DNA of 64,000 bases from an uncultured Acidobacteriota bacterium (GTDB lineage Bacteria; Acidobacteriota; Thermoanaerobaculia; UBA5066; Gp7-AA6). The notes beneath the pieces were generated by a model. The model searched no databases, was not told the DNA's origin, and was given only the letters and a program-made list of their open reading frames with translations. Of the stretch, positions 26,628 through 49,444 are shown in pieces. The DNA is taken from NCBI GenBank assembly GCA_963764715.1, contig CAVXTP010000022.1, positions 96,001-160,000 of the forward strand, in the 5' to 3' direction. The translations under genes and the position numbers were made by a program. The stretch's first letter is position 1. The number at the start of each line of letters is the position of its first letter.

Positions 26628-26713
26628 TGGTGCCGGAGGCCGGACTCGAACCGGCACGCCCTTGCGAGCGGGGGATTTTGAGTCCCCTGCGTCTGCCATT
26701 CCGCCACTCCGGC
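26628..26713 (-). tRNA. tRNA-Leu(CAA)
   Basis: GCCGGAGTGGCGGAATGGCAGACGCAGGGGACT-CAA-AATCCCC, long variable arm, GGTTCGAGTCC T-loop, acceptor stem and encoded CCA. Confidence 0.97.
26673..26713. repeat. att core, left copy (5' half of tRNA-Leu)
   Basis: ggattttgagtcccctgcgtctgccattccgccactccggc, identical to 49338-49378. Confidence 0.95.
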
Positions 26714-26724
26714 GACGGGACGCA

Positions 26725-26730
26725 AGAATA
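26725..26730 (-). promoter_or_regulatory. Putative element-encoded -10 box (TATTCT) for the intact tRNA
   Basis: 11 nt upstream of the tRNA 5' end, the same spacing as TATCCT upstream of the displaced 5' half at 49390-49395. Confidence 0.6.
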
Positions 26731-26786
26731 CTCCAAACCCTTTGCTTGCTGAACGTTCGGTGCGCGTCCCGTCCCCTCACCCATGA

Positions 26787-28004
26787 CTAGAGGGCCTGTC
26801 GTTCCGTCGCTGTGGCCTTTGGCGTGGCCTCTTGGCGGAAATCCACCACGTTGCCCGTCACTTCAGGGCCGTCAATCAGGCTTGCCGCTCGGTTAGCGGC
26901 CTCCCGGACGGCATCCAGCTGGGGGCGGACGTATAGCCCGGTTACGTCGAGTGCCGCGTGGCCGAGGAAGGCCCTGGCAACGGCGTAGGACGAGCAGGAT
27001 TCAACCCGTGTGGCTGCGGTTTTCCTAAGGTCGTGGAACCGGGGACGCTTTTCTCCGGGCTTGGCGGGCTTCCAGACCGCTTCGACCGCCCGGCTGAAGC
27101 TGTGCTCGATCGTTGATGCGCTGACGGCCCTGCCGTCGTTCCGTCGAAAAACGAAGGCATCCGGATCGCTCCCGTGCTCCGCCTGATGCGCGAGGACTGC
27201 CATCGCCGCCTGTCCGAGAGCGACGTCCCTAGCCTTCTTGGCCTTGGCGTAGCGCTCTTCGACTGTCGCGGTGTGCTGTTCGAGGCTAACGCTCCGCCAA
27301 CGCAGGGTGATGATCTCGTTAAGTCGCATCCCGCTGTGAACGGCGAACCGCACGAAGAGGAGAGAGTCCGCCGACACGGAGTCGTAGATTGCTCGAAGCT
27401 CGCCTGGCTTGAAGATGTACCCACGCTCGCCGCGGGCGAACATCCGCTTGCGATCGGCACGGCTGGTCTCTTCGAACGGCGATGACGCGATACCGGTCTT
27501 GCGCTTGTTCTCTCGTCCCCAGTTGTAGGCCCTCCGAAGCAAAGCGAACGCCTTGCGCCGGGAGTCTGGAGCCGGCGGGGGACTTGCGCCTTCGAGCTTG
27601 CATGCCATATCGCGTAGATCTTCGGCGGTGAGGCGATCGGCACGACGCGATGCGTCGAGTGAGGCTTTTATCCGTGCAGTGGTAGACCGATCTGTACGCC
27701 AAGAGCGCTTGGCTCCGGGCTGCTCCGCCAAGTTCTCTCGATCGAACTCGCGAGATTCAGCCTTTAGGTAGAGATCAAGAAGACGATCCACCGAGGGCGG
27801 GTCTGGCAGATCCTCTAGGATGCCGCTTCGCTTCTGAGCCAGCCGGGCTAGCTCAGCGTCGCGAATGCGCCGAGCTGCAGCAATCTCAGACTTGGGACAT
27901 CCGGTCGTCTTGCGGAACCTTCGCCCTTCAGATCTAACGCAGACCCACCAGGTACCGCCTCGGAGAACGAGGTTGCGATCGGTCGTCGGTCTCTTTCGCT
28001 TCAT
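26787..28004 (-). CDS. Tyrosine recombinase / integrase
   Basis: N-terminal arm-binding-like region; catalytic R (GMRLNEI), K, HDLR, LGH and Y (GLYV) all present; ATG overlaps the stop of the upstream RHH gene. Confidence 0.95.
   Translation of the reverse strand: MKRKRPTTDRNLVLRGGTWWVCVRSEGRRFRKTTGCPKSEIAAARRIRDAELARLAQKRSGILEDLPDPPSVDRLLDLYLKAESREFDRENLAEQPGAKRSWRTDRSTTARIKASLDASRRADRLTAEDLRDMACKLEGASPPPAPDSRRKAFALLRRAYNWGRENKRKTGIASSPFEETSRADRKRMFARGERGYIFKPGELRAIYDSVSADSLLFVRFAVHSGMRLNEIITLRWRSVSLEQHTATVEERYAKAKKARDVALGQAAMAVLAHQAEHGSDPDAFVFRRNDGRAVSASTIEHSFSRAVEAVWKPAKPGEKRPRFHDLRKTAATRVESCSSYAVARAFLGHAALDVTGLYVRPQLDAVREAANRAASLIDGPEVTGNVVDFRQEATPKATATERQAL
26809..26832 (+). repeat. Putative integrase arm-type site (tandem 12-bp unit), left copy, inside the integrase 3' end
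   Basis: gctgtggcctttggcgtggcctct matches 49185-49208 at 23/24 positions. Confidence 0.7.
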
Positions 28005-28147
28005 TGCTTGCCTCCTTTCTTCGGCTTGAGGCCGAGGTATGCCGTGAGCGCTGCGGCTATCACGTCTTGAAGGTTGGTCTTTTCCTGTGCCGCCCGGATC
28101 TTCGCGGCGGTCCAGACTTCCTCCGGGATCTCGATCGATGTCCTCAC
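28001..28147 (-). CDS. Small ribbon-helix-helix (CopG/ParG-like) protein
   Basis: MRTSIEIPEEVWTAAKIRAAQEKTNLQDVIAAAL RHH pattern; GAGGGG SD before GTG 28147 (alternative leaderless ATG at 28186); ATGA-coupled to the integrase. Confidence 0.8.
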   Translation of the reverse strand: MRTSIEIPEEVWTAAKIRAAQEKTNLQDVIAAALTAYLGLKPKKGGKQ

Positions 28148-28248
28148 AGTCGTCACCCCCTCTCGTTTCCACGTAGATGCTTTCATGCGTAAGATTGTAC
28201 GTGCTCAGCAGTGGGAGGGCAAACGATGGTCAGGACTCCCGGTGAGGC

Positions 28249-30198
28249 TTAGAGAGCCCGGATGCCGTCGTAAAGCTCTGTCTGTCCCGCGTTTACGATT
28301 GCTTCTACTTCGGGGTCCGCGTTGGCTTCTGGCTTCGCGGCCTTGATCTTCGAATAGAGGTGGAAGGTTCGGGCATGGGCCCTGGAGAGGAGCTGGTCGT
28401 AGTCCAGAGGAATGATCTTGGTCAGGTCTCCTTCTCCAAGCCTCGTGACTTCGACGCCAGATTCGATCTTGGCGCCGAGCACGTATGCGACGACGTGTGT
28501 CGTCGGCTGGACCTTCTTGGCAGTTCGGAGTTCTTTGCAGTAGTCCCTAGCCTGATCAATCTCCTTTTGTCTGACCAGAAACCCGCCCTTTTTCAATTCA
28601 ACAACCAAGACTTTTCGGTATCCGAGGGCTTCGCCTTGGTCGTCGTAGTCGTCAGCGGAATAAGGCGCGATCGACGCCTCGGGCAAGGCTACGAAGTCCG
28701 CTCGCCTTTGTGACGCGTCGGCGTCCGACAAGCCGAAGAACGATCGGATGACGGTGGCCATCGACCGGTTCGATCTGAAGTCGACCGCCTCGTATTCGGG
28801 ACCGAACATCCAGAGTCCGCGCTCAAAAAGTGGCTGAAGGTCGTGGAGCTCGTCGGCCTTGGCATCGTGAACTAGCCGTTGGATATCCTCGATGAGCTTC
28901 AGGCGTCGGCCAAGCTCACCTAAGACAATTTCCGCATCTTGGGCACTCCATTCCGACATCAGGCTGTTCCAAGTGTCGAGGTCATCCGGTGAACAAGCCA
29001 CCAATCTTTCCAAGAGGTCGTACCCGCTACGGGCCTGTTCTAGTCGCGCGAGAATTTCGACCGTTCTCGAAAGGTCTCCCTGGGACAGGCTGGGGCACTT
29101 CTGCAAAGCCTGATCGATAAACTGTCCAACGACCCGCCTCGACATCGGAGGCAACCCCTTTAGTGCCTTTCGATGTGCTTCGAGCGCCTCGAGCTTCCTC
29201 TCCTTGCGTGATGCCGACAGGAGGGAGTCCAGCCTGTCAATCACTGCCTCCCGGACCGCTCCCGTCACTTCCTGCACTCGCTTGCTCGGATGGAAGTCGC
29301 TCCAGTCTGACTTGACTTCTTCCTTCAGGAGGTCCGCCTCAACCACGAAACTGAATCGCTTCGCGGGAGCCGTGCGTCCGTCTAAGATCGAACCCTTTCC
29401 ATCCAGGCCGCGCCACGATGGTTGGCCTACCATCCGACGGTTGACCCAGTAGGTAATCCCGCGAAGTCCGGTCGTTCGATCCTCGCTAGCGCCATCGACC
29501 TGATGAATCGTTACCGTTCCGTGGCCGGGAATCTCCAGCTCGCTTGTAACGACATTCTCCAATCCTACGAGCCGAAGCTCTTGGCCGTTGACGATAATCT
29601 TGAAGTCCGGGTCTACCAGAAACTTGGAGCCGACCGCTTCTCGTACGGCGTCGACTGGCAGGACCGCACGACTAACCTTCGCGCGGATTGCGGTCCCATG
29701 CCCGCTGCGGGGAGAAGCTTCTGACGCCTCACAATGGAACGGCTCCGTTTCAGCGTTCGTGATGGAAACGATTGCCTTGAGTGCAGAGCCGTCGCGCCAA
29801 GTTTCGATTTCGTAGGCGTCCGCGAAGCAAAAGGCGCCATGGCGACCCTTTCCGGTCTGCCCAAAGGCCAGCCTGTCTTTTCGCTTCGCTCGGGAGTCGG
29901 CCGGGAACTCCGCCTTTTCGCCCTGTTCGTCTCTCCGGTTGTAAGACAGGGTTTTCCAGCGGGCGTCGAACTGCTCTTCCGTCATGCCCGTACCGTTGTC
30001 GGTGATTTCGAAGGTTTCGCTGACTTCTTCGGGCCACTTGATGCGAACCTCGTTCGCCCCGGCGTCATAAGCGTTTGCAATCAACTCCACCACGGCAACC
30101 CTAGGGTCGGTCATGATGAAGCCGGCGTGATCACGGAGGAAGTTTGGGCCGAACCGGAATGAACTCTCTTCGAAGAGCTTGCCGCTAGGTCTAGCCAT
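28249..30198 (-). CDS. GHKL (MORC/Hsp90-like) ATPase fused to a PD-(D/E)xK nuclease (Shedu-like); candidate anti-phage protein
   Basis: ELIANAYDA, DNGTGM, GQTGKG and GT GHKL boxes; C-terminal LQPLFERGLWMFG..RADF..VVELKK..QARDY nuclease pattern. Confidence 0.8.
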   Translation of the reverse strand: MARPSGKLFEESSFRFGPNFLRDHAGFIMTDPRVAVVELIANAYDAGANEVRIKWPEEVSETFEITDNGTGMTEEQFDARWKTLSYNRRDEQGEKAEFPADSRAKRKDRLAFGQTGKGRHGAFCFADAYEIETWRDGSALKAIVSITNAETEPFHCEASEASPRSGHGTAIRAKVSRAVLPVDAVREAVGSKFLVDPDFKIIVNGQELRLVGLENVVTSELEIPGHGTVTIHQVDGASEDRTTGLRGITYWVNRRMVGQPSWRGLDGKGSILDGRTAPAKRFSFVVEADLLKEEVKSDWSDFHPSKRVQEVTGAVREAVIDRLDSLLSASRKERKLEALEAHRKALKGLPPMSRRVVGQFIDQALQKCPSLSQGDLSRTVEILARLEQARSGYDLLERLVACSPDDLDTWNSLMSEWSAQDAEIVLGELGRRLKLIEDIQRLVHDAKADELHDLQPLFERGLWMFGPEYEAVDFRSNRSMATVIRSFFGLSDADASQRRADFVALPEASIAPYSADDYDDQGEALGYRKVLVVELKKGGFLVRQKEIDQARDYCKELRTAKKVQPTTHVVAYVLGAKIESGVEVTRLGEGDLTKIIPLDYDQLLSRAHARTFHLYSKIKAAKPEANADPEVEAIVNAGQTELYDGIRAL

Positions 30199-30239
30199 GG
30201 TCGGTTGGGGCTCAGGTTACTACTCGTTGGACCCCGAAC

Positions 30240-30258
30240 GGCCACGCCAGAGGCCACA
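30240..30258 (-). repeat. Internal inverted copy of the arm-type motif
   Basis: Reverse complement tgtggcctctggcgtggcc is identical (19/19) to 49187-49205. Confidence 0.75.
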
Positions 30259-30321
30259 TTCAGCTTCGGGGCATGCGGAATTCGCCCCAGGCCGCCTCTT
30301 TCGGAGAGCTGCATGGGACTT

Positions 30322-30534
30322 CTAGTCCTTCGTTCGCCGTCGGGAGGCCAGAAATGCCTCCAAGTCGCCCACCGAGAAGAGCATCTTGCGTCCGACCCGG
30401 TAATAGGGCAGTTCTCGACGGAGGGCGAACTCCCGGACGCCCTGAGGCCGAATCCTCAGCCTCTCCGCCACCTCGAAGCTAGTCAGCAAGCGATCGCTCG
30501 GAGTAGCGGCCAGCAATCGAGTCGAGCTAGCCAC
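30322..30534 (-). CDS. Excisionase-like HTH_17 DNA-binding protein
   Basis: LLTSFEVAERLRI...ELPYYRVGRKMLFSVGDLEAFL; GAGGAGG SD before GTG 30534. Confidence 0.85.
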   Translation of the reverse strand: MASSTRLLAATPSDRLLTSFEVAERLRIRPQGVREFALRRELPYYRVGRKMLFSVGDLEAFLASRRRTKD

Positions 30535-30641
30535 GGTCCGAAACCTCCTCTGTCGCCACTGGAAATGCGGGAAATCCGTCCAGCGCTTCCTCGATGAGCG
30601 AGGTGTAGAGGGTTCCAATTCCGCGCCCACCGCCTTCGAAC

Positions 30642-31001
30642 TCAGCCACGAAGTTCCTCCCAGGGCGAGGGCCCGGATGCCAGGCGTTCGAAGTCAGCTG
30701 CCGCCCCCAAGTCGCCGGCGGCCATCTGAAGGAGGATTTCAAAGACGATCCGGGCGGCCTCGAGCGTCGGCGGCTCCATGTCCGTGTACGGGAAGGCGAC
30801 GTACCGAGCCGCGTGTCTGATCTCATCCGAAGACGGGAACTTGCAGCCGATCGGCGAAACTGGCCCAACTCCGTTCACGCCACCGTCGGTCAGGAGCCTC
30901 TGGCCAACGTCCGTCGAGAGGGGCGATCTCGCGTATTGCCCCCGCGCAACTATCGATAATGCGCCGAGGCGAAACTTCGGGTACTTCCGAGCACTACTCA
31001 A
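30642..31001 (-). CDS. Hypothetical protein
   Basis: Open frame in the co-directional operon; TTG start overlaps the upstream stop; start uncertain. Confidence 0.5.
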   Translation of the reverse strand: MSSARKYPKFRLGALSIVARGQYARSPLSTDVGQRLLTDGGVNGVGPVSPIGCKFPSSDEIRHAARYVAFPYTDMEPPTLEAARIVFEILLQMAAGDLGAAADFERLASGPSPWEELRG

Positions 31002-31416
31002 GCGATGAACCCTGTTCCCTGTAGATTCGCGCGACCCGAAACCAGCAGCCAGGGTGACCAGCTTCGTGAGTGTCCTCCCTGCTGATCGCGCATCTCTCCA
31101 CGCAGGCGTGTGGGATCTGCCAGACGGGACGGTCGCCATGGAAGGCCAAGGTCCCAAACAGGTCACCGCTTTCGATCAGGGCCTTGGTCTGCCGGCGGGA
31201 CAGGCAGAGCAGCCAAGCGGCTTCGCCGAGGTTGAGAGGGTCTGGCAGTCCAGGCGTGCGCCGGCGGTCCCTAGAGATCCGCAGCCGCACCTCGCTGGAC
31301 CCGGCTCCGGCATGGTAGTAGCCGTTAGCTGCACGGAGCGCCTCCTCGAGCGTCAGACACTGCGGCGCGATCGTTCGTGTCCACGGGATCACTCGACGAA
31401 AGCCGGGGCCGCTCAT
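30994..31416 (-). CDS. Hypothetical protein with C-terminal excisionase-like HTH
   Basis: LNLGEAAWLLCLSRRQTKALIESGDLFG...WQIPHACVE resembles HTH_17. Confidence 0.65.
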   Translation of the reverse strand: MSGPGFRRVIPWTRTIAPQCLTLEEALRAANGYYHAGAGSSEVRLRISRDRRRTPGLPDPLNLGEAAWLLCLSRRQTKALIESGDLFGTLAFHGDRPVWQIPHACVERCAISREDTHEAGHPGCWFRVARIYREQGSSLE

Positions 31417-31619
31417 CGATATCCGCCTCGAAGGACCAGGGACGACGATGAACCGAGCTGTCGCTCCTCAAAGAAAGCACCATCAAGCAAACTCCCGTTG
31501 CCAGGACGAATGCCATGACCGGGTCCCAGAGGAATCCCCTGGGACCCGGCCTTCGTGTGCATGACTGCTTGCAAGCACCCGGCCTGGCTAAGCCGGAAGT
31601 CTTTGATTTCAGTACTCAT
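31413..31619 (-). CDS. Small hypothetical protein (or C-terminal part of a frameshifted upstream gene)
   Basis: Overlaps the upstream stop and is ATGA-coupled to the next gene. Confidence 0.4.
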   Translation of the reverse strand: MSTEIKDFRLSQAGCLQAVMHTKAGSQGIPLGPGHGIRPGNGSLLDGAFFEERQLGSSSSLVLRGGYR

Positions 31620-32217
31620 CTTCGATGCCATCCTTGGTAGTGGGAATGGGACTGGTCTTGGTAAAGGGAAAGGCTTTGGAAAGGGGACAGGACGAGGAAT
31701 CGGAAAGGGTATCGGGTGAGGCCTCCCCTCCCGCCTCAAGTCTCGTAAGAGTCCCAAGGCGCGAGTGCCAGCACTGCTCAGGCAGAGATCTCGACTTCCT
31801 GTCGGATTTCACGATCTCGACGTGGGCTAGGAATAGCTTGCGTTGGAACAGTTTCGACGGGACAAGCTTCTCTCCCTTTTTTGGCAGCCGGCCGAGGGCC
31901 ACGGCAGCGTCTCGAAACAAATGGCTACGACCGCCCTTCGGTTTCCACCGGGTGCACTCCGTGTTTGGAATTGGCCGGCCGCAGGCGCAGATCACGGGGT
32001 AGTAGCGAGGAAGCTCCGCTCGTTTGAAGCCGACTGCGCAAAAGTAGGCGACGATTCGAGAACTCGGCTGGGCAACCTTTCTCTCATCGAAAAAATGGAT
32101 AGGGTTGCCGGCGGAAATGAACTCGACGATGGTCTCGCCCTCGAACGGGGTTCCGTCGTCCGAAGACAGGAGTCTAGGAGCGTGGGGGTCATCGTAGACC
32201 CCAACTTCTCGGCTCAT
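31609..32217 (-). CDS. Hypothetical protein (basic, beta-rich; possibly nucleic-acid binding)
   Basis: ATGA-coupled to the upstream ORF; 202 aa open frame in the element core operon. Confidence 0.65.
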   Translation of the reverse strand: MSREVGVYDDPHAPRLLSSDDGTPFEGETIVEFISAGNPIHFFDERKVAQPSSRIVAYFCAVGFKRAELPRYYPVICACGRPIPNTECTRWKPKGGRSHLFRDAAVALGRLPKKGEKLVPSKLFQRKLFLAHVEIVKSDRKSRSLPEQCWHSRLGTLTRLEAGGEASPDTLSDSSSCPLSKAFPFTKTSPIPTTKDGIEDEY

Positions 32218-32729
32218 AGAGCCTCCGGGATGGACTTGGACGCTTGTCGGTACGGTTTTGTGCCCGATCGTGCCTCCACGGCCCGGGAAGGCCGCTTCCT
32301 GCGTTGCTCGAGCGCCTTCTGAAGGGCCGCCTTCACTGCCAAGCTGGCGGTCCGATTTCGCCTAGCCCCAAGAAGCTGGAAGTAGTGCCCCCAGCCCCCC
32401 ACGGGGAAGCGGACGACAAGCTCGAACTCGCCCTCCTGGTGGACGATGGCACCCGGCAGGGCTTTGAGCCTATTTTTCAGTCTGGGGTGATCGGTGTAGG
32501 CGCAGAGTTCGTTCCCGCCGTACGGGTAGATCTTCCCGTACCTGCACGGGACCTCCAGCAGCCACGGGTCGAATGCTTGCCCCGGAACGTGGCTCTCGTC
32601 CCATTGGTTCCTGTGGCTTGGGAAGCGTTCCTTCAGGTTCACGCAGCTCCCTCGCCAAATGCCCAACATCTGTCCGGCTTCCGAGACTTTCAACATCATG
32701 CAGACAAGACTACGCACGGAGAGAGACAT
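32214..32729 (-). CDS. Hypothetical protein
   Basis: DPWLLEVPCRYGKIYPYGG...VHQEGEFELVVRFP; start may instead be GTG ~32642 after a GAGGGAG SD. Confidence 0.65.
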   Translation of the reverse strand: MSLSVRSLVCMMLKVSEAGQMLGIWRGSCVNLKERFPSHRNQWDESHVPGQAFDPWLLEVPCRYGKIYPYGGNELCAYTDHPRLKNRLKALPGAIVHQEGEFELVVRFPVGGWGHYFQLLGARRNRTASLAVKAALQKALEQRRKRPSRAVEARSGTKPYRQASKSIPEAL

Positions 32730-32774
32730 TCTCCACGGCGATATCCGAACGATTTTCGAGAGGATAGCGAGAGA

Positions 32775-33623
32775 TTAACGAGACGTGCGTGGGCCTGCGT
32801 CTGCCACAGGGAGGGCATCGGCAAGCGCCATGAGGATCTCCGTGTAGTTCAATTCTGCCGGTACCTTCCCGCTCTTCCTATAGCGATCGCGGCGGTCGTA
32901 GAGGACCTTCTCCGACACATCACGGGCCTTGAGTCCTACGGCGGCATAAGTAGCGGTCAGCAAGTCGCTGCATTCGGCAAGATGCGGCCGTCTTGTCCGC
33001 GTTTCAACGAGGTCCAAGAGCCTGACCTCTTGATCCACGAGTAGATTCCGTTTCCGACCTCGCAGCGTCACCAGATAGTCGCCGTATTCCTCTAACTCTT
33101 TTGGAAGGTTCAAGCGTCGTTGAAAGGCTCCGAACGATGCCTCTATATCGACGCTTCCCGCGGTGCCGTGTTTAATGACTGATGCGAGCGCTTCGTTGAA
33201 GGCATGTCCTGGGGCTCCGTAGACGCTATCGTTTACGCTCTCGATCTCTTTCGCCAGCTGCCGAAGCTGCCGCTTCAGCCGACCGAGTGCGCTCAGCCTT
33301 GGAAGCCCGACGTAGTCACGCGGAGTGCGCTCGAGGCAAGCCGCGAACCAGCACGCTTCAAGCGCGCGTGGCAATTCAGAGCCGAAATGGATCTTACTGA
33401 TGGGCGGTCCGCTGGTGGCATGCTTGCCCTTGATCGAGAGAGGCGAGTACGCGCCTAAAAGCTTCGCGTATGCCTCTGCCGCTCGCTCACCGCCGTCTTG
33501 TGAAAACACCTCGCGGAGGAAGTCCTGGCTCAAATCAAAGTCGCCATTCCAGGGATAGAGAAGCTTCGCCGTCGCCGCGGGCTCAAACTGTCGGATTGCC
33601 ACGACCTTCCCCTCCTGAATCAT
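32775..33623 (-). CDS. Hypothetical protein, first gene of the element core operon
   Basis: 282 aa helical-looking ORF; start uncertain. Confidence 0.65.
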   Translation of the reverse strand: MIQEGKVVAIRQFEPAATAKLLYPWNGDFDLSQDFLREVFSQDGGERAAEAYAKLLGAYSPLSIKGKHATSGPPISKIHFGSELPRALEACWFAACLERTPRDYVGLPRLSALGRLKRQLRQLAKEIESVNDSVYGAPGHAFNEALASVIKHGTAGSVDIEASFGAFQRRLNLPKELEEYGDYLVTLRGRKRNLLVDQEVRLLDLVETRTRRPHLAECSDLLTATYAAVGLKARDVSEKVLYDRRDRYRKSGKVPAELNYTEILMALADALPVADAGPRTSR

Positions 33624-33712
33624 ACGATCTGGGGCCTATCGCGCGCGGCGGGTGAAGCGCTACCCCTTCCCGCTCAGCCGCCCCTGACGCAAGACTCAGT
33701 ATGCGTCCGCCC

Positions 33713-37377: not shown

Positions 37378-37421
37378 CGATGCACGTGTAGCTGGCGGGC
37401 GAGCCCTCAAGGACCGTAGAG

Positions 37422-40020: not shown

Positions 40021-40099
40021 GCGTTCCGGGGTAACCCCAGTCCTACGGCCCCGGGCTTGGCGCGGAAATACAGGAATCCGCGGTTGACCCGTCGATCCC

Positions 40100-40469: not shown

Positions 40470-40724
40470 CGGGCCGAGCGTGTGGGACAGGCCTGACGGC
40501 GCGGGGCCGAGCGACAATGTTGCTGATCTCGACCGCTTGTCAAGCGGTATGCCCCGCTAGTTGACGATGTCACCGTTGTTTGTACCGCTGCGCCCTCCGC
40601 GGCGTTCTCGCGTTCCGGAACGACCGTGCAACCCTGCCTGCGAACACCGCCGCGCTACCGTGCGTCATGCGATATGAGCCCGGGAAACGCGAAGTGCCAC
40701 GGTAACGTCAGCGATAGAGCCGGT

Positions 40725-41183
40725 TCAACGGGCGGATAAAGTCGCATGTTCATATTCGTCCCTGGTGCCAACGAAAAAACGCTCCATCCGAATACGCGGC
40801 TTGCCCTCGGGACGAAGTTCTACAAACTCTCTTCCCCAAATTCTTGACTCCCTTCCTGTCGACGGAACGACGTTCGCATGATCGTCTGCCAACACGAATA
40901 CATCGCGAGCCCACCCTTGGTTGTAGAGGGAGCTGGTGCAGGCGGTTAGATCACTGCTAATGGCAACTTGGAGCGTATCGTTAGCATTGGCGAGCGGTGG
41001 GCAAGTCGGGTCCTCAAACCTCACCGTTATCCAGCCCCGCGCATTGGCTGGCAGAACATAGCGAAGAGCAGGGCGAGCGCGGCAGGCCGACGCTGCCGTG
41101 GCGACTACAACCAGGACAAGAGCGTAGCGTGTCGTTAGTCCGCGGCGGTGTCCCAAGGCAGTCTCCCTGGTGATTGCGAACAT
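40725..41183 (-). CDS. Putative immunity lipoprotein (DUF6843-like) for the RHS toxin
   Basis: Directly downstream of and overlapping the RHS stop; lipobox ASAC; YVLP..ARGWITV.F..PTCPPL pattern. Confidence 0.7.
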   Translation of the reverse strand: MFAITRETALGHRRGLTTRYALVLVVVATAASACRARPALRYVLPANARGWITVRFEDPTCPPLANANDTLQVAISSDLTACTSSLYNQGWARDVFVLADDHANVVPSTGRESRIWGREFVELRPEGKPRIRMERFFVGTRDEYEHATLSAR

Positions 41184-44100
41184 GACGGTGACGGCATACC
41201 CGTGCAGGTTGCGGTGAATCGCTCTGTCGTGAAGAGGCCCGATGCCGAGCTGCCAGCGTTGCCCCTGAACAACGAAAACGACTGATCGCCAACCTTGCCG
41301 TTAACTTCCATCGCCGGAAAGCTCGATCGAGACCCTTCGAGAGTGATGGAGTCCCCGGACGGCGAGATCGTTGTCTCGGTTGATGCCCGAATTCCAAACG
41401 GTGATGTGCCCGCGGGAGGCGCTGCGTCTTTCGGAATGCCCTCGTTCTGAAATGTTCTAACCACGACATTGCCATTTGAATCGCGCGACACCTTGACCCC
41501 GATCGAATCGCCGGTCGCCAACCCTTTGGCTCCGGTGACTAGGTTTGTCGTTTCTCCGACTCGCACCTGCGGTGCTCCGACTAAGGGGTTCATCCGCTTG
41601 TTCGGGTCAGTCTCGACTGTCAGTCGAATCTCAGTCCGTACTGAGGCGTCCTTCGACAAGCTGAAGCCTCGGGTATCGCCCTTGAACGCTCCAAGAGGGC
41701 TTGCCACTCCAGCCGACGGTATGAAGAATCGATAGGTCAGTTCCACCTCAACCAGTCCAGTTGGATCTGAAAAACGCATCGGGTTGTTTCTGCCGTAGGA
41801 ATAACGGTTCCACGTTTGGGGGTTGCGAGGTGAGCCAGCGACCTGATCTGGGCTCAGGAAACGACCGAGCGTGAACTCTTCACTGCGGGCGTGGTCAAAA
41901 TAAACGAGGCTCTCCGTGTCCCTCTCCATCCCCGCAAACCGCAGGCGTTGCGGCTGCGTCACGGTCACGACCTCGTCTCCGTAGGGCCAGTACCTCGGCT
42001 TTTCGAGCATCGCACCGGCGATGTCCGTGATCAGGCGCGGGCTTCCGAGATGATCCGAGCTGTAGTACGTCCAGGCCTTGCTGTTTCCGCCGACGAGAGT
42101 GTTCGCATAGGAGGCCAGGAGCAGGTTGCCCAGGTACACGTCGTCGCGGCTAAACGTGGAACCCGAGTATTCCGTAGCAAGCCGGTTGGCCTCATCCCGG
42201 AACGTGTAGTTCCAGGCGCCGAGGCCAGGAGGCGGCACCTTGACGACACGCTCCCCGGCCGCGTCGAAGTAGTAGTTCCACGTCTGGCTGCCATCGAAGT
42301 GACGCACGATCCGGTCGAGCGCGTCGAAGGAGTAAGTCTTGCCGCCGTAATTGGTCATGTTGCCACGGGCGTCGTACGTCCCGGTGGGTACGCGGTTGTT
42401 CGTCCAGGTCGTCGTTCCGCATGACGGGGGGGTCGTGGTCTTGTTGAAGCGGTTGCCGTAGCGGTCGTAGCAGTAGTACTGGCTGCTGACCCCAGAATAG
42501 GAAGCCGAGAGGAGCCGCGCGCGATCATCGTAGGTGAAACTGTCTGCCCCCATAGTCATCACGTCCCCGGCTCCGTCGTACGAGTATGAACCCGAGGACC
42601 ATTCAGAGGAAGCGCCTGTTGTCCCGATAAGGGCCGGACGGGGCAGGCCGTTGGTATCGGGGTCGATCCGAGTTTTTACGTCATGCCCGGTACCGAGGCC
42701 GGTGAAGTACTCATAAACCGCACCGGATGCTGAGTAGGAAATGCTCTTCGCCATGGGGATTCCGTTGGCGTAGACCGTCACGGGCAGACCGTAGTCGTAG
42801 GCAGTCGAGGCGAGGAACGGCGTCCCTCCCGAGGTCCGGGCGTGCCAGTAGTCCGAGGGCAGTCCAAGGACGTTGTAGGCCCACTTGTCTGTGGCGGTGA
42901 TGCCGCCGGAGACCGTGGTCGCACGGCTGGAGAGTCGGCCTGAGGGGTCGGAGTAAGTGAAGTCCTGAGTGATGCTTTGCGTGGCGGCGCCGAGGGGATC
43001 GTAGTTGCCGCCGACCTGGCGCGTGAGCTTGCCGAGTTTGTAGGTCCCCCCCGCGAAGCCGTTGCCGTCGTAGTAGTTCGTTGCGAAGGTCTTGGTACCC
43101 GACTTCACCGACGATACGCGGCCAGCGAAGTCGTAGGCGCGCGTGATCGTAGCGCCCGGAAGGGTCTCGTTGAGCAGGTTGCCGAGGCCGCCGTAGGTGT
43201 AGGTTACCGGGGTCGACCCTCTTTCCGGCGTGAGCTCGGCTATTAGGTTGCCGCCAGCGTCGTAGTCGAACTTCCTCACCTGTCCGCCGGTCGCGCTACA
43301 AACATCCAAGTGCGGATCGCTGCCCCCTTGAATGACGCATCGCAGTTTGTCGTTGGGGTCGTAAGCGTACAGGGCCAAGTCCGTAAGGTTCGGCTCGAGG
43401 ACGCTGATCAAGCGCCCGAAGCTGTCTCGTTCGTTCGTGGTGATCGGGTTGAGGGGCGCCGTGCCGTTGCACGTAGCCCCGGAAAACGACCCGTTGAGGC
43501 AGTAGTTGGTGACCTGCTCGAACGAATCGCTGTGAAAGGATGCCCCGTCCGTTCGATAGATCGTTTGAATGCTGTTGTGTTTGGACCGCACAACCTTTTG
43601 CGGCCGGCCAAACGGATCAAAGCAGGTCGTATAGGTTCCGAGAGCCCCAGTCGGCCGATTCGTCGTAAAGTTCGATTCTACGCCGTTGCCGTCTGTGTAC
43701 TTGCACACGGTCGATTGCGTCGCTGATATCGACTCGCCGGCCGAATCGGCCACCCACTCCGAATGGAAGTAGTCGTGCCCGGCGTCGTCGAACCTCGTGA
43801 ACTGCTTGAAGATCGAGCCACCGGGATTCTTCCGTCGCTCCCGGATGAGCCGCCCGAAATCGTCGTACTCGTACTGCTGCCACGTCGTAAGCCCTGCGCC
43901 ACCCGAGCGTTGCACGGTCGTTAGCGTTGTCGAGTTGTAAGTGATCGTCGTCGGGATCTCGCCATCTGCGTCGCCCGGCGTCCCGGTCGTCATGTTCGGG
44001 GTAATCTTCGTGACCCGGCCGAGGGTGTCGTAATCGTAGTGCGTTCTGGCGCCGGCGGTGTCGTACGAATCGGTGACCCATCCTGTTTCGGGATCGCGCG

Positions 44101-46519
44101 CATAGTTGCGAACGTACCAGCTCGCCGGGGCGGCCCCGCTCTTCCAGGCTGCGCTCGTCACTTCACCGTTTTGATAGGTGTAGCGTTTGCCGAATCTAAG
44201 ATCGGTAAAACCGGGCGAATCGTCACCCACCGGAGTCGACGCTGTATATGTACCGCAAGTGCCCGAAAGGGTCGGCATAGCTCCTGTCGACGATTCGACG
44301 AGGTTGTCACTCGCATTGCCGCGAGAGTCGGCAAAACGGCACTTTACGTAAGCTCTGCCACCTGTTGAATCCCATGTGATTTGGCCCTTCAGAAATCCGT
44401 CCGCAGTTGTTGACGTTGTGTCGAAGAGAAAAAGTCGGACGATGGTTCGACCGCTCTCAAGCGTGTCCTGTTCAGTGAAGAGGTTAGGCAACGCGGCGCC
44501 TCCCGTCGGAGGCGCGGATGTCCAGTTGACGGGAAACCAGGTTGTATCGATTGTTTTCGTCTCCGTGGGTCCCTGCAGATTCCCCGACCGCACTTCTCGC
44601 CCGTAATGACGCCCGCGGCCCTCCCATGTCCCCGAAGGGTTCGAGAACGTGGTCGACGTAAACTTGCAGCCGACGCAGGCCCCCGACGGTCCTGTACTCT
44701 GATGGAAGGTCGTCTCAGAAAGAAGCCGCCGATTACCTTTGACGGTTCCGGGGCAGTCGACGGTGCCTGAGCAGTCGTAGTCGAAGACGCGCTGGGTGAC
44801 CCTAACGGCATGTTTGGGACAGAAGTCCTGATCGTAGACTGTGCAAGCAGGTTGGCTAATGGTTGGGTCAGGATCGCCCGCCGGAACCCAGGGGTCAAAG
44901 TCGAACGTGCGGGTCTCGATATCGGCACCGATTCGGTCTCCGGTCGCTGTCGACCCGTCGAAAGTTCCTGAGTCCGACCAGAACAGGGTGGCAGTGGCAT
45001 GGGCCCGCCCCTCGATTCCGCGCGGGAAGATGGCTATCGTGAGAGTTTGGGAGCCGCAGGTGTCATTGCCTGGAGTAGCGCAAATTGCCAACTTCTCGCC
45101 AAACGGAAACGCAACCTGCACGTAGTCCGTCTCGGCTTTCCGTTGAGCACCATCGTTGTCGGTAAAAATCTCGGTACGTCTTCCAACGCCTTGGACGGCA
45201 TCGGAAAACTCGGTTGGATCTGTTGCCGGGTCGCCGGTGCAGTCGTTCAGGTGCGGCGACGGCGGTGGATCACCCTGAAAGTAGTTAGTTGCTGAGGGGC
45301 GGCCGGACTGCAGCACCAGAGAACCTGGAGGAGGCTGTTCGGCTCCGCAATTCATCCGGCTGCTGTGGCGTGCATGGTAGAAGTGATAGGTGCTCCACAG
45401 GTAATCGATCTCGGCGCCGGTCGGAAGTGTCATCGTTCGCGCGAGGCCGTTTAAGTATGTAAACGAATACGACGTCGTCGGTAGCGTGATCGACGTGAGC
45501 CGATAGACATTGACTGCCGGGGCGTTGGGTGGCCCCGCTGACCAGGTGAAGTAGTCGTATCCGAGCGACCACGTAGCGGAAGCGGCGCCGACGGTCGGGA
45601 AGAGAAAAGAGCTTATCCGGCCAGTCGTCCCGTTCCGATTGACGGTCACCGTCCAGGATGCCGGCTGCCCCTCAGGGTAGCCCTGGATCGAGGACGGGAC
45701 CCACGATTTGGCGCTCGTTGGCGTGCGACACGCCATGTTCCCGTAGAGCGGAGGGGGGGCGGAGCCTGTGTCCCAGCAAGGCAAGTTTCCCAGGGGCGTG
45801 AAGTAGTCGACGTGGATGATATTGCCGAACGGGTCCGTAATGTCCGTGACGTACCAGCCGTCGCGCCCGCGGCCGAGGTTATTCAGGTAGTGGTCGTACG
45901 GATCATCGTAGCCGGTAACGTGATTGGTGAAGTCGTAGTGGTTACCGTCGGCATCCCACATGTCGTATCCCGACGTGTCATTGCCTGTCAGATAGAACTG
46001 GCTGGCGTCGCCTGGCTTCGAACTCGTGGGCGGAATCGTCCCGTTGAACTGGTGCTCCGCTCCGTCGGGACCGACGAAACACCTGTAGGACTGGTTCTCA
46101 CCGCACTTCTTGATTGCGCCGAGCGTGAAGGTCCAGCCGATTCCGATGGCGGGGTCACCGACGAGGGGCATGTACAGATTTCCCTGCGAATCTATGTCGC
46201 CCAGCGTCGGATGGCCGAACTCCCAGACCCGTGATCCGTACGTCAGCATCGCCTGAAAGCGCAGCTTGGGCCCCACGGGGTAGGAGGGACCCAGCGGTAC
46301 AGGAATGGTTAGGGCGCCGTTGTAGAGATTGATCGAGTCCACCGATGAATGGTGGAAGACGTTGTTGGTGTAACCGATCTTGACGTCGGCGTCGTCGTCC
46401 GGTCCCTGCTGGGCAAGCACGTCGATCGCGGGCGCCAGGATGCCTGCGAGGAAAACCGCCACCTTCAACCAACCAAAGCGGCTGGGCCCGATGCTGATGA
46501 TGCGACATTGACGTTTCAT
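41135..46519 (-). CDS. RHS/YD-repeat polymorphic toxin with N-terminal Sec signal and ~205 aa C-terminal domain
   Basis: YD repeats, DHLGSPR, GRFLSPD and NRYSYGRNNPMRFSDPTGL core end; hydrophobic signal peptide; no PAAR motif. Confidence 0.92.
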   Translation of the reverse strand: MKRQCRIISIGPSRFGWLKVAVFLAGILAPAIDVLAQQGPDDDADVKIGYTNNVFHHSSVDSINLYNGALTIPVPLGPSYPVGPKLRFQAMLTYGSRVWEFGHPTLGDIDSQGNLYMPLVGDPAIGIGWTFTLGAIKKCGENQSYRCFVGPDGAEHQFNGTIPPTSSKPGDASQFYLTGNDTSGYDMWDADGNHYDFTNHVTGYDDPYDHYLNNLGRGRDGWYVTDITDPFGNIIHVDYFTPLGNLPCWDTGSAPPPLYGNMACRTPTSAKSWVPSSIQGYPEGQPASWTVTVNRNGTTGRISSFLFPTVGAASATWSLGYDYFTWSAGPPNAPAVNVYRLTSITLPTTSYSFTYLNGLARTMTLPTGAEIDYLWSTYHFYHARHSSRMNCGAEQPPPGSLVLQSGRPSATNYFQGDPPPSPHLNDCTGDPATDPTEFSDAVQGVGRRTEIFTDNDGAQRKAETDYVQVAFPFGEKLAICATPGNDTCGSQTLTIAIFPRGIEGRAHATATLFWSDSGTFDGSTATGDRIGADIETRTFDFDPWVPAGDPDPTISQPACTVYDQDFCPKHAVRVTQRVFDYDCSGTVDCPGTVKGNRRLLSETTFHQSTGPSGACVGCKFTSTTFSNPSGTWEGRGRHYGREVRSGNLQGPTETKTIDTTWFPVNWTSAPPTGGAALPNLFTEQDTLESGRTIVRLFLFDTTSTTADGFLKGQITWDSTGGRAYVKCRFADSRGNASDNLVESSTGAMPTLSGTCGTYTASTPVGDDSPGFTDLRFGKRYTYQNGEVTSAAWKSGAAPASWYVRNYARDPETGWVTDSYDTAGARTHYDYDTLGRVTKITPNMTTGTPGDADGEIPTTITYNSTTLTTVQRSGGAGLTTWQQYEYDDFGRLIRERRKNPGGSIFKQFTRFDDAGHDYFHSEWVADSAGESISATQSTVCKYTDGNGVESNFTTNRPTGALGTYTTCFDPFGRPQKVVRSKHNSIQTIYRTDGASFHSDSFEQVTNYCLNGSFSGATCNGTAPLNPITTNERDSFGRLISVLEPNLTDLALYAYDPNDKLRCVIQGGSDPHLDVCSATGGQVRKFDYDAGGNLIAELTPERGSTPVTYTYGGLGNLLNETLPGATITRAYDFAGRVSSVKSGTKTFATNYYDGNGFAGGTYKLGKLTRQVGGNYDPLGAATQSITQDFTYSDPSGRLSSRATTVSGGITATDKWAYNVLGLPSDYWHARTSGGTPFLASTAYDYGLPVTVYANGIPMAKSISYSASGAVYEYFTGLGTGHDVKTRIDPDTNGLPRPALIGTTGASSEWSSGSYSYDGAGDVMTMGADSFTYDDRARLLSASYSGVSSQYYCYDRYGNRFNKTTTPPSCGTTTWTNNRVPTGTYDARGNMTNYGGKTYSFDALDRIVRHFDGSQTWNYYFDAAGERVVKVPPPGLGAWNYTFRDEANRLATEYSGSTFSRDDVYLGNLLLASYANTLVGGNSKAWTYYSSDHLGSPRLITDIAGAMLEKPRYWPYGDEVVTVTQPQRLRFAGMERDTESLVYFDHARSEEFTLGRFLSPDQVAGSPRNPQTWNRYSYGRNNPMRFSDPTGLVEVELTYRFFIPSAGVASPLGAFKGDTRGFSLSKDASVRTEIRLTVETDPNKRMNPLVGAPQVRVGETTNLVTGAKGLATGDSIGVKVSRDSNGNVVVRTFQNEGIPKDAAPPAGTSPFGIRASTETTISPSGDSITLEGSRSSFPAMEVNGKVGDQSFSLFRGNAGSSASGLFTTERFTATCTGMPSPSCSQSPGRLPWDTAAD

Positions 46520-46527
46520 GCCGGCTC

Positions 46528-48255
46528 CTAGTTGGAAAACCGCACGTCGGCGAAGAGATTGCTTTCGATCGAGCAGGAAGGAGATGTGCCCGCCCCGCTG
46601 GCGTAACATCCCTGTAAACCTGTTAACGGCGGCCTTACGTAGTCGGGTGTTAAGGCGTTGTAGGTCTTACTTTCGATGCTCGTCGCGGCCCCGTTTGGAG
46701 ACGATGAGACGCGGTAGATCAGACCGGCGGTAATCGGATAAGGACTCGCAAGAGCAACTTCTTGCCATCCAGCTCCTGTTTCAGCTGGCGTTCCCGTCGT
46801 TGCTGTCCTCACTGCTGTTCCGCCAGACTGTGTCCAGAGACGAATGGTGTGAGTGACCGCCAGATCGCCAGGTGCCTTGAAGAACCTCAGCGCCGTGATC
46901 TGACCGTTTTGCGAGGCTGAGAAACTGATCCCCTCCTCGAAGACGGGGGTTAGGGGTGTGAAGGTGGCGGGTGTCTCAAGATTGAATAATGTTGCGGTCG
47001 CGGCGCGGAAGCGCACGTCGACCCAAAAGTTGGAGGTACTCTGCGGCGCTTGACCGACCGAGCAGTTCGGCGGCACGCCGGGGCCCTGAGTCGTCGCGTA
47101 GCAGCCTCGCGTTGCATAGAGCGGCGGATTGTTGAAGAAGGCTCCGGAGGTCTTGTTCTCGAGGATGTTGGTCGTGTAGGAGACGACGAACTTCTGATTC
47201 GCGAGAATGTAAAGAGGCGGTGAGAACACCGCTTCCTGCCAGCCCGATGAGGATTCGGTACCGGCTAGAAAACTAACGGTTGCGATGGGCGCACCGACTG
47301 CGCCAGTGGCGTCTGTATTCCAGAGACGACCAGTGTGGCCTGAGCTCTCGCCGATAGCCTTATAGAATCTCATCGCTGTTATCCAGCCGTTCTTGTCGGC
47401 GTAGAACTCAGTGCCAATCTCGTAGTTGACGGCCGCCACCGGGCCCGACTGGCTTCCGTAGATCGTGTACGAAGGTGTTATCGGAGTGTCCGTCAGGGAA
47501 GCTTGCTTTGTGACCCCGCCGTAGATGCCGCTGATCGTGCACGACTTGTTGGCGCTCACCACGGCGGTGGCGACGGAACCGGTCGCGGTAGTTGCTCCGG
47601 CGGGCACAATGACGAGGGGCGGCGGGACTGCTACCGAGGCGTCTGAGCTGGAGATTGAGACCGAGGCTCCGCCGGCCGGAGCCGCGGCCGTCAAAGTGAC
47701 CGTAGCAACGGTCAGGCTTCCCCCGACCACACTCGACGGCGTCAGCGTGATCGAAGCGATGGCGAGTCCGGGAGGGGTGCCAACGGCTGTCGTGCCCGTA
47801 GCCGAGTTGTTGGCAATGGCTGGGTCGGATTCGTTCGCGACTGCGCCGGCGATGTTCGAATAGGTCCCCGCCGAGGCAGCCTTGACGGTGATCGTCACCG
47901 ATCCAGCCGAACTCCCCGCCAGCGTTCCGATGGTGCAGACGACTGTTCCACCGACGGTAGAACCCGTCGGATTGTTGAGCGAACAGCCGGCGGAGGCAGA
48001 CACAAAGCTCACAGCCGGATCGAGAACGTCGGTCGTCGTCACGCCCGTGGCGGTAGCCGAGCCGATGTTGGTGACTTGGATCGTGTAGGCAAAGTTGGTG
48101 TTAACGCTCGCCGATGACGGCGCAGATAGTTGCAGTTGGAGGTCTGGCAGCGGCGGAGCCTGGGCGCATAGGGCGGAAGGTGCAGCGACAAGGGTCACGA
48201 TCGCGAGCGCAAGCGCCGAGATGCCTGGTGACGAAGGACTAAACTTTCTCTTCAT
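46528..48255 (-). CDS. Secreted DUF11 + Ig-like + 2x DUF4082 surface protein
   Basis: Signal peptide; YTIQVTNIG..ATGV...DP..ANN DUF11 motif; two E.G..F...NG.ITA.RF.KA...WQE DUF4082-like repeats. Confidence 0.8.
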   Translation of the reverse strand: MKRKFSPSSPGISALALAIVTLVAAPSALCAQAPPLPDLQLQLSAPSSASVNTNFAYTIQVTNIGSATATGVTTTDVLDPAVSFVSASAGCSLNNPTGSTVGGTVVCTIGTLAGSSAGSVTITVKAASAGTYSNIAGAVANESDPAIANNSATGTTAVGTPPGLAIASITLTPSSVVGGSLTVATVTLTAAAPAGGASVSISSSDASVAVPPPLVIVPAGATTATGSVATAVVSANKSCTISGIYGGVTKQASLTDTPITPSYTIYGSQSGPVAAVNYEIGTEFYADKNGWITAMRFYKAIGESSGHTGRLWNTDATGAVGAPIATVSFLAGTESSSGWQEAVFSPPLYILANQKFVVSYTTNILENKTSGAFFNNPPLYATRGCYATTQGPGVPPNCSVGQAPQSTSNFWVDVRFRAATATLFNLETPATFTPLTPVFEEGISFSASQNGQITALRFFKAPGDLAVTHTIRLWTQSGGTAVRTATTGTPAETGAGWQEVALASPYPITAGLIYRVSSSPNGAATSIESKTYNALTPDYVRPPLTGLQGCYASGAGTSPSCSIESNLFADVRFSN

Positions 48256-48366
48256 CCTTGTCTCTCCATGTGGGTAGACTTCGCCCCACGACGCCTCGAC
48301 GGCGACAGCCGTAAGCCAAATCGCGGTGGAATCACCTGTAGATTGAAATCGCGCGGAGGCCCAGAA

Positions 48367-48918
48367 ATGCATCGGGGAAAATCATCTTGGTCGCCTACGA
48401 AAACAGCAGCCTCCTCTCCCCCTGAGGAACGTGAGGATGGGTTGCCGACCGAGGCGACGCGCCGCTATTTAGCTCGCGTACTGATTCAGCGGTACGGCGT
48501 CCGACGCGAGGACGTCGCGGACGTGATGGGCGATGCTGTTGTAGCGTTTCTCTGCGCTCGTGCGGACGGGAAGCCGGTGAGCGAAGGCCTTTTCTTCGTG
48601 ATCGCTCACCGAAGGGGCTGCGACGAGCTCCGGCGGCGCTCCCGCCGGAAGGTGCCATATTCCAAGGCCCTCGAATCCGTGGCACCCGATCTCGACGCGC
48701 TGGAAGAGACATTCATGGTTCGGGTGGTGCGTCGGTCATTCCAGTCCCGTGGGTCGGATACGCGATCGAGGATGGAAGCGCTCGTGCGTGAGCTAGCGCA
48801 GGGTTGCACGTGGGCCGACGCCTGCCGACGGGCGAGTGTTCCGCGCGGGAGCCAGTCGCGGTTTCGAGACGACCTGAAGCGCGTGTTCGGCGGCCGCCTC
48901 AAGGGTCGGATCAGGTAG
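48367..48918 (+). CDS. Divergent ECF/sigma-70-like factor
   Basis: EDVADVMGDAVVAFL...LFFVIAHRRGCDELRRRSR resembles region 2; C-terminal HTH-like TWADACRRASVPRGS; start uncertain (48367 or 48442). Confidence 0.6.
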   Translation: MHRGKSSWSPTKTAASSPPEEREDGLPTEATRRYLARVLIQRYGVRREDVADVMGDAVVAFLCARADGKPVSEGLFFVIAHRRGCDELRRRSRRKVPYSKALESVAPDLDALEETFMVRVVRRSFQSRGSDTRSRMEALVRELAQGCTWADACRRASVPRGSQSRFRDDLKRVFGGRLKGRIR

Positions 48919-49184
48919 GCACATCCCGATGCCGCAGTTATCCCGCCCCGTCGCTCCAGTCTAGCCGGAGGGGAACTCGCGGCGCTAAACGGGGTGCGAG
49001 TAGGAGCGAGCTGAGTCGCCAAAGATCCGAGGCGGAGGAGGGCCCCCGCCAACGAGAAAGGCAGCTCTTGCCTCGGCGCGGCAAAGCGTCCGTCGGCCCT
49101 CAGGCTCCGCTCAGATCCTCAACCGTGTGGGACCGGATCAGACCCAACGCCTTCCTGGGGGTCCTCGCGGGTGTTTGTCCAAGG

Positions 49185-49208
49185 GCTGTGGCCTCTGGCG
49201 TGGCCTCT
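49185..49208 (+). repeat. Putative integrase arm-type site, right copy
   Basis: gctgtggcctctggcgtggcctct, ~130 bp inside the right att core. Confidence 0.7.
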
Positions 49209-49337
49209 CTGCCCAACGAAGGGCGGAGTTAGACCGTTTCCAACGAAACGAAACGTAACTCGTGAAAGGCGCAGGAACGGCAGCGCTGGCGGGCGTTTTC
49301 TGCGTGTTTCCAAGAAAAATCGGGGAGGCGCCAGAAC

Positions 49338-49378
49338 GGATTTTGAGTCCCCTGCGTCTGCCATTCCGCCACTCCGGC
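49338..49378 (-). repeat. att core, right copy = displaced 5' half of tRNA-Leu with native upstream DNA
   Basis: 41/41 identity with 26673-26713; identity ends just past the anticodon loop; no T-arm or CCA follows. Confidence 0.95.
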
Positions 49379-49444
49379 AGGGAGACAAGAGGATAACCGA
49401 GCCGGGAGCCGGACGCCCGCGGGCGTGGCGGGGATAATCGCTCC

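Follow-up and report, generated by a model that had tools for sequence, protein, structure and literature searches.

We describe an island of putatively mobile DNA lodged in a leucine transfer RNA (tRNA) gene of an uncultured soil bacterium of the Acidobacteriota (Thermoanaerobaculia). The window, by which we mean the whole stretch of DNA that was analysed, is 64,000 nucleotides (nt) long and covers positions 96,001 to 160,000 of contig CAVXTP010000022.1 (assembly GCA_963764715.1). In these 64 kb ARAGORN finds a single tRNA gene, tRNA-Leu(CAA), at 26628-26713 on the minus strand. It is the only copy in the whole genome and is identical to the gene of the relatives G023, G013, and G017 (such handles denote the genomes compared). 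Its first 41 base pairs (bp), 26673-26713, recur exactly and in the same orientation at 49338-49378, and they begin at tRNA base 1 and extend 3 nt beyond the anticodon loop. Even when three mismatches are allowed the window holds only these two matches, and 0 of 100 shuffles holds any. Read in the sense of the tRNA, the second copy is an orphan 5' half that lies upstream of the intact gene at a distance of 22,665 bp. The original prediction, made from the letters of this DNA, had called this repeat an attachment (att) repeat reaching from the tRNA 5' end to past the anticodon loop; ARAGORN and the exact repeat search return all of its coordinates.

Between the two copies the G+C content (GC) is 0.57-0.65 (across 27-49 kb), compared with about 0.69-0.74 in the flanks. 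The gene closest to the tRNA encodes a tyrosine integrase; it is read in the direction of the tRNA and ends 73 nt short of it. The long open reading frame (ORF) matches Pfam PF00589 over residues 265-417 (E 7.1e-23) and PHROG 1 (E 1.9e-37), and a profile search retrieves XerD, XerC, XerA, and lambda Int chains; a single-sequence search of the PDB gave no match. Six residues of the 405-residue database form (R227, K254, H324, R327, H349, and Y358) are invariant among 24 aligned homologues and align with the active-site motifs of XerD. Both the fold and sequence family and the catalytic set R-K-H-x-x-R-H-Y of a tyrosine recombinase are therefore present. A 24-nt repeat occurs twice in the window and never in shuffles, once at the integrase 3' end and once close to the other island end. 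Paired in this way, the repeats have the arrangement of arm-type sites on both arms of the element's attachment site (attP).

The polarity of the island follows from what lies on either side of the repeat copies. The integrase, the arm repeats, and a TATTCT hexamer all lie between the copies and directly upstream of the intact tRNA, hence element DNA precedes the working gene. Beyond the orphan half follows host-like DNA, where a divergent oxidoreductase gene has a -10 box of its own (GATAAT, 49433-49438) that is kept before the orthologue in relatives. Islander recognizes an island in a tRNA gene by an intact tRNA gene, a cognate end fragment that points the same way, an integrase gene between them, and a size of 2-200 kb; the window shows all of these, with an island of 22.7 kb. 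The features of the reversed, or 5'-fragment, class are present as well: the 5' fragment lies upstream, and integrase and arm repeat lie at most 120 nt from the tRNA 5' end.

One could argue that no site-specific integration took place at all and that the repeat goes back to a segmental duplication or to an assembly join, since the genome is a 26-contig assembly and the junctions are known from that assembly alone. We consider this extremely improbable. In every independent case the anticodon loop is where the repeat stops, and at both of its copies the composition changes. The DNA between the copies holds an intact integrase and paired arm repeats, and related elements occupy the same site in other genomes. 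The block of identity ends 0-3 nt past the anticodon loop in the window, in three orphans of G023, and in G005, G021, and G027, and it ends at tRNA base 40 in two further integrase lineages. From these ends we infer a crossover at or near the anticodon loop.

Each of the two 5' halves is preceded by a promoter-like box. As the original prediction had it, and as can be read directly from the sequence, TATTCT lies 11 nt before the intact tRNA and TATCCT lies 11 nt before the orphan. Upstream of the core the two copies are still weakly alike (58 nt at 86%). In place of a consensus rule we used a calibration on the genome's own 53 tRNA genes. A TANNNT hexamer stands most often 11 nt before the tRNA (7 genes); it is found at 10-12 nt in 14 genes and at 7-20 nt in 25. 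TATTCT, TATCCT, and TATCAT each occur at other tRNAs of the genome. Because it is measured against these genes, the element's box can be called host-typical in both form and position.

We consider it likely that the window holds a 22.7-kb reversed (5'-fragment) island in the anticodon-loop region of tRNA-Leu(CAA), and that the working tRNA is transcribed from element DNA. In the mechanism that we propose, attP would carry the first 41 nt of the tRNA and, upstream of them, the element's own transcription signals, arm-type sites, and the integrase 3' end. Recombination would then yield two products. The first would join the host promoter and host 5' half to the far end of the island, giving the orphan at 49338-49378. 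The second would join integrase, element promoter, and element 5' half to the host 3' half, giving the working gene at 26628-26713. Transcription driven by TATTCT would most likely begin just ahead of the mature 5' end, by a few nt, possibly with some help from integrase read-through. The features concerned are listed in Table 1.

Table 1. Features of the island and of the host DNA around it, in positions of the window
Feature	Position	Strand	Basis and remarks
Sigma-54-type response regulator (host)	25370..26602	+	Pfam; convergent with the tRNA; left flank marker in all genus relatives by synteny
Intact tRNA-Leu(CAA)	26628..26713	-	ARAGORN; 3' part 26628-26672 host DNA; 5' 41 nt predicted element-side after anticodon-loop crossover
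Att core copy 1 (tRNA bases 1-41)	26673..26713	-	Exact repeat
Integrative island between the core copies, 22.6 kb	26714..49337	.	GC, repeat, ORF matches; backbone modules in common with the G023 element
Putative element-borne -10-like box TATTCT, 11 nt before the tRNA 5' end	26725..26730	-	Invariant in three E1-type elements
Weak -35-like hexamer TTCAGC, 17 nt upstream of TATTCT	26748..26753	-	3/6 positions match; CTCAGC in G005 and G023
Tyrosine integrase, 405 amino acids	26787..28004	-	PF00589; ORF open back to 28172
Arm-type repeat, two GGCCAC units, integrase 3' end	26809..26832	.	96 nt from the core; invariant in E1 relatives
Promoter-like site 5' of the integrase gene, TTGCCC-17-TACAAT	28194..28222	-	Sole site in 26400-28400 passing the consensus rule
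Cargo, whole span	28249..48372
Cargo: GHKL-ATPase protein, restriction-enzyme-like similarity	28249-30198		Pfam and further profile matches
Excisionase-like small ORF	30322..30630	-	PHROG 66 E 2.3e-5; PHROG 1840 E 7e-3
Cargo: SLH repeat protein	33713-36037
Cargo: PMT_2 glycosyltransferase	37422-39074
Cargo: methyltransferase	39160-40020
Cargo: RHS protein	41135-46609
Cargo: DUF4082/DUF11 protein	46528-48372
Arm-type repeat, second copy	49185..49208	.	130 nt inside the other island end; right-end 200 bp kept in the G023 element
Att core copy 2, orphan 5' half of the tRNA	49338..49378	-	Exact repeat
Host -10-like box TATCCT, 11 nt before the orphan half	49390..49395	-	Same type before the tRNA in G006, G014, G020 and before the G021 outermost orphan
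Zinc-type oxidoreductase gene (host)	49445..50464	+	Pfam; divergent from the orphan half

If the promoter belongs to the element, related integrases should bring one too, as the original prediction had expected. Loci were fetched with 28 homologous proteins (relatives 35-88% identical). Seven of the 10 genome loci have a tRNA-Leu gene 80-145 nt downstream of the integrase on the same strand; of the other three, one breaks off with its contig after 4 nt of the tRNA, a second stops short of the site, and the third is a 63-residue fragment with no tRNA nearby. Among 12 metagenome loci, eight have the tRNA, two end inside it, and two are not evaluable. Four tRNA-Leu isoacceptors are targeted (CAA, CAG, TAA, and TAG). 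Counting each DNA stretch once leaves 20 evaluable loci (the window, G009, and 18 of the fetched genome and metagenome loci). In all 20 a TANNNT box on the integrase strand precedes the tRNA-Leu 5' end by 8-14 nt, and in all 20 the order is integrase, arm repeats, -35/-10-like boxes, tRNA-Leu 5' end; the loci are kin, so that these counts overstate independence, and at least four sequence-distinct lineages are involved. The background of such hexamers is 1 match per 1000 positions in ten scanned loci (-130..-26) and 0.0007 per position genome-wide. A strict -35/-10 rule is passed by 7/20 loci; in 500 shuffles the mean is 0.05 and no shuffle exceeds 2. The other loci mostly score 8/12, and most family loci have a TTGAnT-type -35 box at 16-18 nt. 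The expectation of a -10 box close to the 5' half is thus borne out across the family, and comparison lends support to the promoter that we infer for the rebuilt tRNA gene.

Displaced 5' halves, too, are found beyond the window. One tRNA-Leu(CAG) locus, with an integrase 45% identical to that of the window, has an orphan half (bases 1-40) 18.2 kb upstream, and a further CAA locus, with an integrase 39% identical, has one (bases 1-40) 9.0 kb upstream, which confirms orphan 5' halves in three integrase lineages. The CAG locus (G041:C19 41562-79117) has a 3' fragment of the gene (bases 60-85) as well, on the other side at 19.2 kb downstream. A single tRNA-Leu(CAG) gene thus seems to host both a reversed and an ordinary island in this genome.

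Throughout the genus tRNA-Leu(CAA) adjoins the same regulator gene. In 21/21 genus relatives with readable upstream DNA the tRNA is preceded, at 10-12 nt, by a TAT(C/T)(A/C)T box, and the DNA beyond that box falls into several unrelated kinds. The kind found in the window, E1, is also present in G023, where the integrase is about 76% identical and the element about 18.8 kb long. The G023 element and the window's have in common the integrase region, a 1.1-kb xis-like module, and the right-end 200 bp; the remaining cargo differs. G005 holds a 3.15-kb E1 remnant with only the C-terminus of the integrase and with TATTCT retained. The sequence TATTCTTGCGTC is invariant in all three E1 elements (window, G023, and G005). 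Around the predicted promoter of the window (26714-26773) there is also a 10-bp inverted repeat (GACGGGACGC / GCGTCCCGTC; fold z = -2.4), which is not kept in the G005 remnant.

The second kind, E2, precedes 3-kb units that carry a Ser/Thr kinase gene and no integrase. These are stacked in G023, and each ends in a 5' half. At G023:C9 6806-12786 the units of about 3 kb stand in tandem upstream of tRNA-Leu(CAA), each 5'-half copy with its own CTATCAT box, and in G002 and G011 the contig ends at about 3 kb from the tRNA, which is what such tandem repeats would lead one to expect. The third kind, E3 (TTGGAT-17-TATCAT), is found next to whole or fragmentary integrase genes in G021 and G009. The E3 block of G016 and G001 comes with integrase-flank homology and with no integrase match in the fetched DNA; in G016 there is also no orphan half within 20 kb. 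Host-like boxes of the TATCCT type stand in front of the tRNA of G006, G014, and G020; in the window and in G021 they precede the outermost orphan half. At least 10/39 published relatives have orphan 5' halves, five of which were inspected individually (G005, G023, G021, G008, and G027). G027, from another family of the same order, has an 8.2-kb island (G027:C24 142-8447) of the same polarity that duplicates the tRNA-Leu(CAA) 5' half. Its integrase is only 26-33% identical, is divergently oriented, and points away from the tRNA.

These relatives allow a limited comparison with the uninterrupted site (attB), which the original prediction had proposed to reconstruct from uninterrupted loci. No exact empty site was found among the relatives examined, and the oxidoreductase gene never lies 66 nt from the tRNA, as it does from the window's orphan half; in the 13 relatives with an orthologue the distance is 1.3-8.8 kb, that is, hypervariable. 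What the relatives do provide is the TATCCT-type promoters of G006, G014, and G020 and of the G021 orphan, to which the attB comparison is limited. An unoccupied relative with the upstream sequence that begins at 26714, the case that was to speak against the prediction, was not seen: the whole sequence occurs only in the occupied G005 and G023, and G003 shares about 19 proximal nt of it.

Several observations weigh against our interpretation. In G003 the tRNA is directly preceded by 19 nt that almost match those of the window's element (GTATTCTT.CGTCCCG), and this genome shows no integrase match, no orphan within 20 kb, and no similarity beyond those 19 nt. The -10 and spacer block shared with G003 may therefore come from a host promoter or from an old remnant. 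A consensus promoter scan found no passing site before the intact tRNA and none before the orphan, which means that the consensus rule is too strict for this organism's tRNA promoters. The best -35/-10 pairing scores 7/12 in the window and 6-7 in its two E1 kin, lower than anywhere else in the family; for the host box at the orphan, though, the score is just 6/12. In public sequencing runs at most 0.16 of sampled words were found, and contigs from four runs gave the tRNA and left host gene of relatives and nothing beyond 26750. Finally, no terminator-like site was found between the integrase stop (26787) and the tRNA, so that read-through may suffice to make the tRNA.

It could then be that TATTCT is inactive as a promoter, and that RNase P cuts the tRNA out of a transcript that reads through from the integrase promoter. 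We regard this as unlikely. A promoter-like site does lie upstream of the integrase gene (28222-28194), and archaeal pTN3-type elements, in the account given in a section of a review (PMC8371274), offer a parallel. The weak E1 boxes and the missing terminator point the same way. Read-through alone, however, leaves unexplained why a TANNNT box is kept at 8-14 nt in all 20 loci and, in the ten loci scanned for it, is almost the sole such hexamer in the 130 nt upstream, and why most of the family loci add a -35 box at 16-18 nt. In G005 the integrase is reduced to its C-terminus and its promoter is gone, and yet box and tRNA persist. G016 and G001 likewise keep an element-type upstream block without an integrase match in the fetched DNA.

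Alternatively, the box could be kept for a reason other than transcription, such as a site for the integrase or a host factor in attP, and the rebuilt tRNA could be poorly expressed or dispensable. The genome has a tRNA-Leu(UAA), which might read UUG as well. UUG makes up only 2.6% of leucine codons in 1008 long ORFs with high GC at third codon positions (host-like) from the rest of the genome. Selection on tRNA-Leu(CAA) may thus be weak and the gene possibly not essential, given tRNA-Leu(UAA). That the two upstream contexts are alike beyond the core would also fit a site of this sort. Nevertheless, the hexamer conforms to the -10 pattern (T1, A2, and T6) and to the modal spacing of the host, whereas the surrounding sequence varies by lineage. 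With 45-58 bp between it and the anticodon loop, it is too distant to be a core-type site, and the arm repeats are located elsewhere. Such a box is, moreover, kept at this tRNA in every one of the 21 genus relatives. We judge this second alternative to be highly improbable. The claim of the original prediction that the element takes over transcription of a host tRNA is therefore one that we keep: the anatomy of the locus and the 20 family loci support it, with promoter activity predicted from sequence.

What happens after integration is more speculative. We put forward as possible, though not probable, the idea that the promoter of a housekeeping tRNA has been repeatedly overwritten by mobile DNA in this acidobacterial lineage and that the replacement can turn permanent. 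Several kinds of element would pile up at the tRNA-Leu(CAA) 5' half, the integrase-less 3-kb kinase cassettes among them; an element would then decay while its promoter block stayed behind as the only one, as may have happened in G016 and G001. There are signs, then, that element promoters may outlive elements.

How does the island compare with known systems? Classical tRNA integrases of the anticodon-loop class, as Williams set them out in 2002, reportedly restore the 3' part of the gene. The window's island and this class have in common a tyrosine recombinase, an identity block that ends at the anticodon loop, the symmetry of the stem, and arm-type sites in attP. The polarity, however, is the mirror image. 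In the window the identity block runs to the 5' end, and the native promoter is displaced as a consequence. A reversed element that Zhao and Williams described in 2002 is said to replace the 5' portion of its tRNA, to have to bring upstream signals, and to leave the displaced 5' fragment upstream. That element and the window's island share 5' replacement. They differ in that our host is an acidobacterium (Thermoanaerobaculia) with another integrase lineage, and in that a whole integrase family here has the reversed layout, across four tRNA-Leu isoacceptors.

The principle of reversed integration is already known, and the window's island joins a documented minority class. PMC6563490 describes 5'-distal recombination as considerably rarer and refers to Zhao and Williams (2002). 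Islander counts 159 islands with a 5' fragment and 3760 with a 3' fragment (159/3919; Hudson et al. 2015, PMC4383910). The premise of the original prediction that such elements usually duplicate the 3' part is in line with these numbers, and the novelty of the island is less than it had assumed. In the portion of the Islander account that deals with them, 5'-fragment islands are defined just as the window's would be, with an integrase inside, a 5' fragment of the same orientation upstream, and an anticodon-centred site. Promoters, on which our emphasis lies, are not mentioned in that portion (PMC4383910).

A bacterial parallel in layout comes from SAR11 pelagiphages of the HTVC019P type, the cores of which overlap the 5' end of tRNA-Cys or tRNA-Leu. 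According to the sections concerned (bioRxiv 10.1101/410191), the split host tRNA-Leu is completed by a partial 5' end borne by the phage, integration is experimentally confirmed, and the junctions consist of the integrase C-terminus followed by the intact tRNA, as in the window; a promoter is not mentioned in those sections. Pelagiphages are podoviruses, whereas the window's island has no phage structural matches among the ORFs scanned. For bacteria in general, section 18 of the review cited above (PMC8371274) states that rebuilt tRNA genes keep their original promoter with very few exceptions. In the same part of that review, archaeal pTN3-type integrases use the 5' half, expression comes from the integrase promoter, and the arrangement is seldom met in bacteria. 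Archaeal pTN3-like integrases and TKV4-type proviruses thus share with the window an attB in the tRNA 5' half and a rebuilt tRNA expressed from element DNA, which in the window is a prediction. In these archaeal elements attP falls within the integrase gene (the suicidal type), whose promoter the tRNA is said to use (PMC8371274, same part). In the window, by comparison, the integrase stays intact, and a separate bacterial-type -35/-10-like pair lies between integrase and tRNA. A literature search found nothing on element-supplied tRNA promoters in bacteria, and none of the matches listed for a genomic island with an integrase at tRNA-Leu named Thermoanaerobaculia. What appears to be new is a coherent Thermoanaerobaculia integrase family that is, as far as its loci suggest, dedicated to tRNA-Leu 5' halves and equipped with a conserved promoter-like module.

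The island may still be mobile. Its integrase is intact, kin elements with other cargo occupy the same site, and the excisionase-like ORF sits in a backbone module (30311-31411) that is 84% identical in the G023 element. Virion and lysis genes, which would mark a prophage, were sought among 10 island ORFs by comparison with PHROGs, and only the integrase and the excisionase-like ORF matched; for the island ORFs that were scanned, Pfam points to cargo of other kinds, and no phage structural match was found among them. In the island genes (26787-48372) UUG accounts for 12% of leucine codons (57/474), compared with the host share given above. This higher use hints at a benefit to the island from controlling tRNA-Leu(CAA); it proves nothing.

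The cargo itself is varied. The GHKL-ATPase protein next to the integrase has 649 amino acids, and its N-terminus resembles restriction enzymes of the BbrUII/HgiDII type (NCBIfam E 1e-24, well under the family cut-off; PADLOC REase_II E 5e-13). The SLH protein (774 amino acids, SLH domain at the end) contains six tandem units of 162-168 nt at 34749-35605. The RHS-repeat protein is 1824 amino acids long, with an RHS-associated core at residues 1540-1619 followed by a C-terminal part without assignment. Downstream of its gene and overlapping it is a small ORF (40725-41183) with a weak DUF6843 match. On these matches the pair looks like a polymorphic toxin with its immunity gene.

Some further observations concern the flanks and the far end. 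To the left of the island there is a second stretch of lower GC (0.63-0.70) at 12001-19000. In the window and in most relatives a GATAAT/CATAAT box lies just 6-12 nt before the oxidoreductase start codon, which suggests that the mRNA would be leaderless or have a very short leader. A terminator after the orphan half that would insulate the island was considered and rejected: its hairpin and T-run occur in the window only and not at the right ends of G023 and G005, and the fold as a whole does not surpass that of shuffles (z = +0.97). With regard to a capture of the host promoter by far-end genes, ORF orientation at the right ends gave no clear pattern.

The island of the window is a clean, well-bounded bacterial case of mirror-image integration at a tRNA site. 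Island finders that expect 3' fragments will overlook islands of this kind, which matters for annotation. For the evolution of Thermoanaerobaculia genomes, tRNA-Leu(CAA) emerges as a hot spot with stacked and decayed elements. The signal across the family suggests that the element brings a dedicated promoter for the very gene that its insertion rebuilds. In this way a cell can come to rely on mobile DNA for the expression of a core gene.

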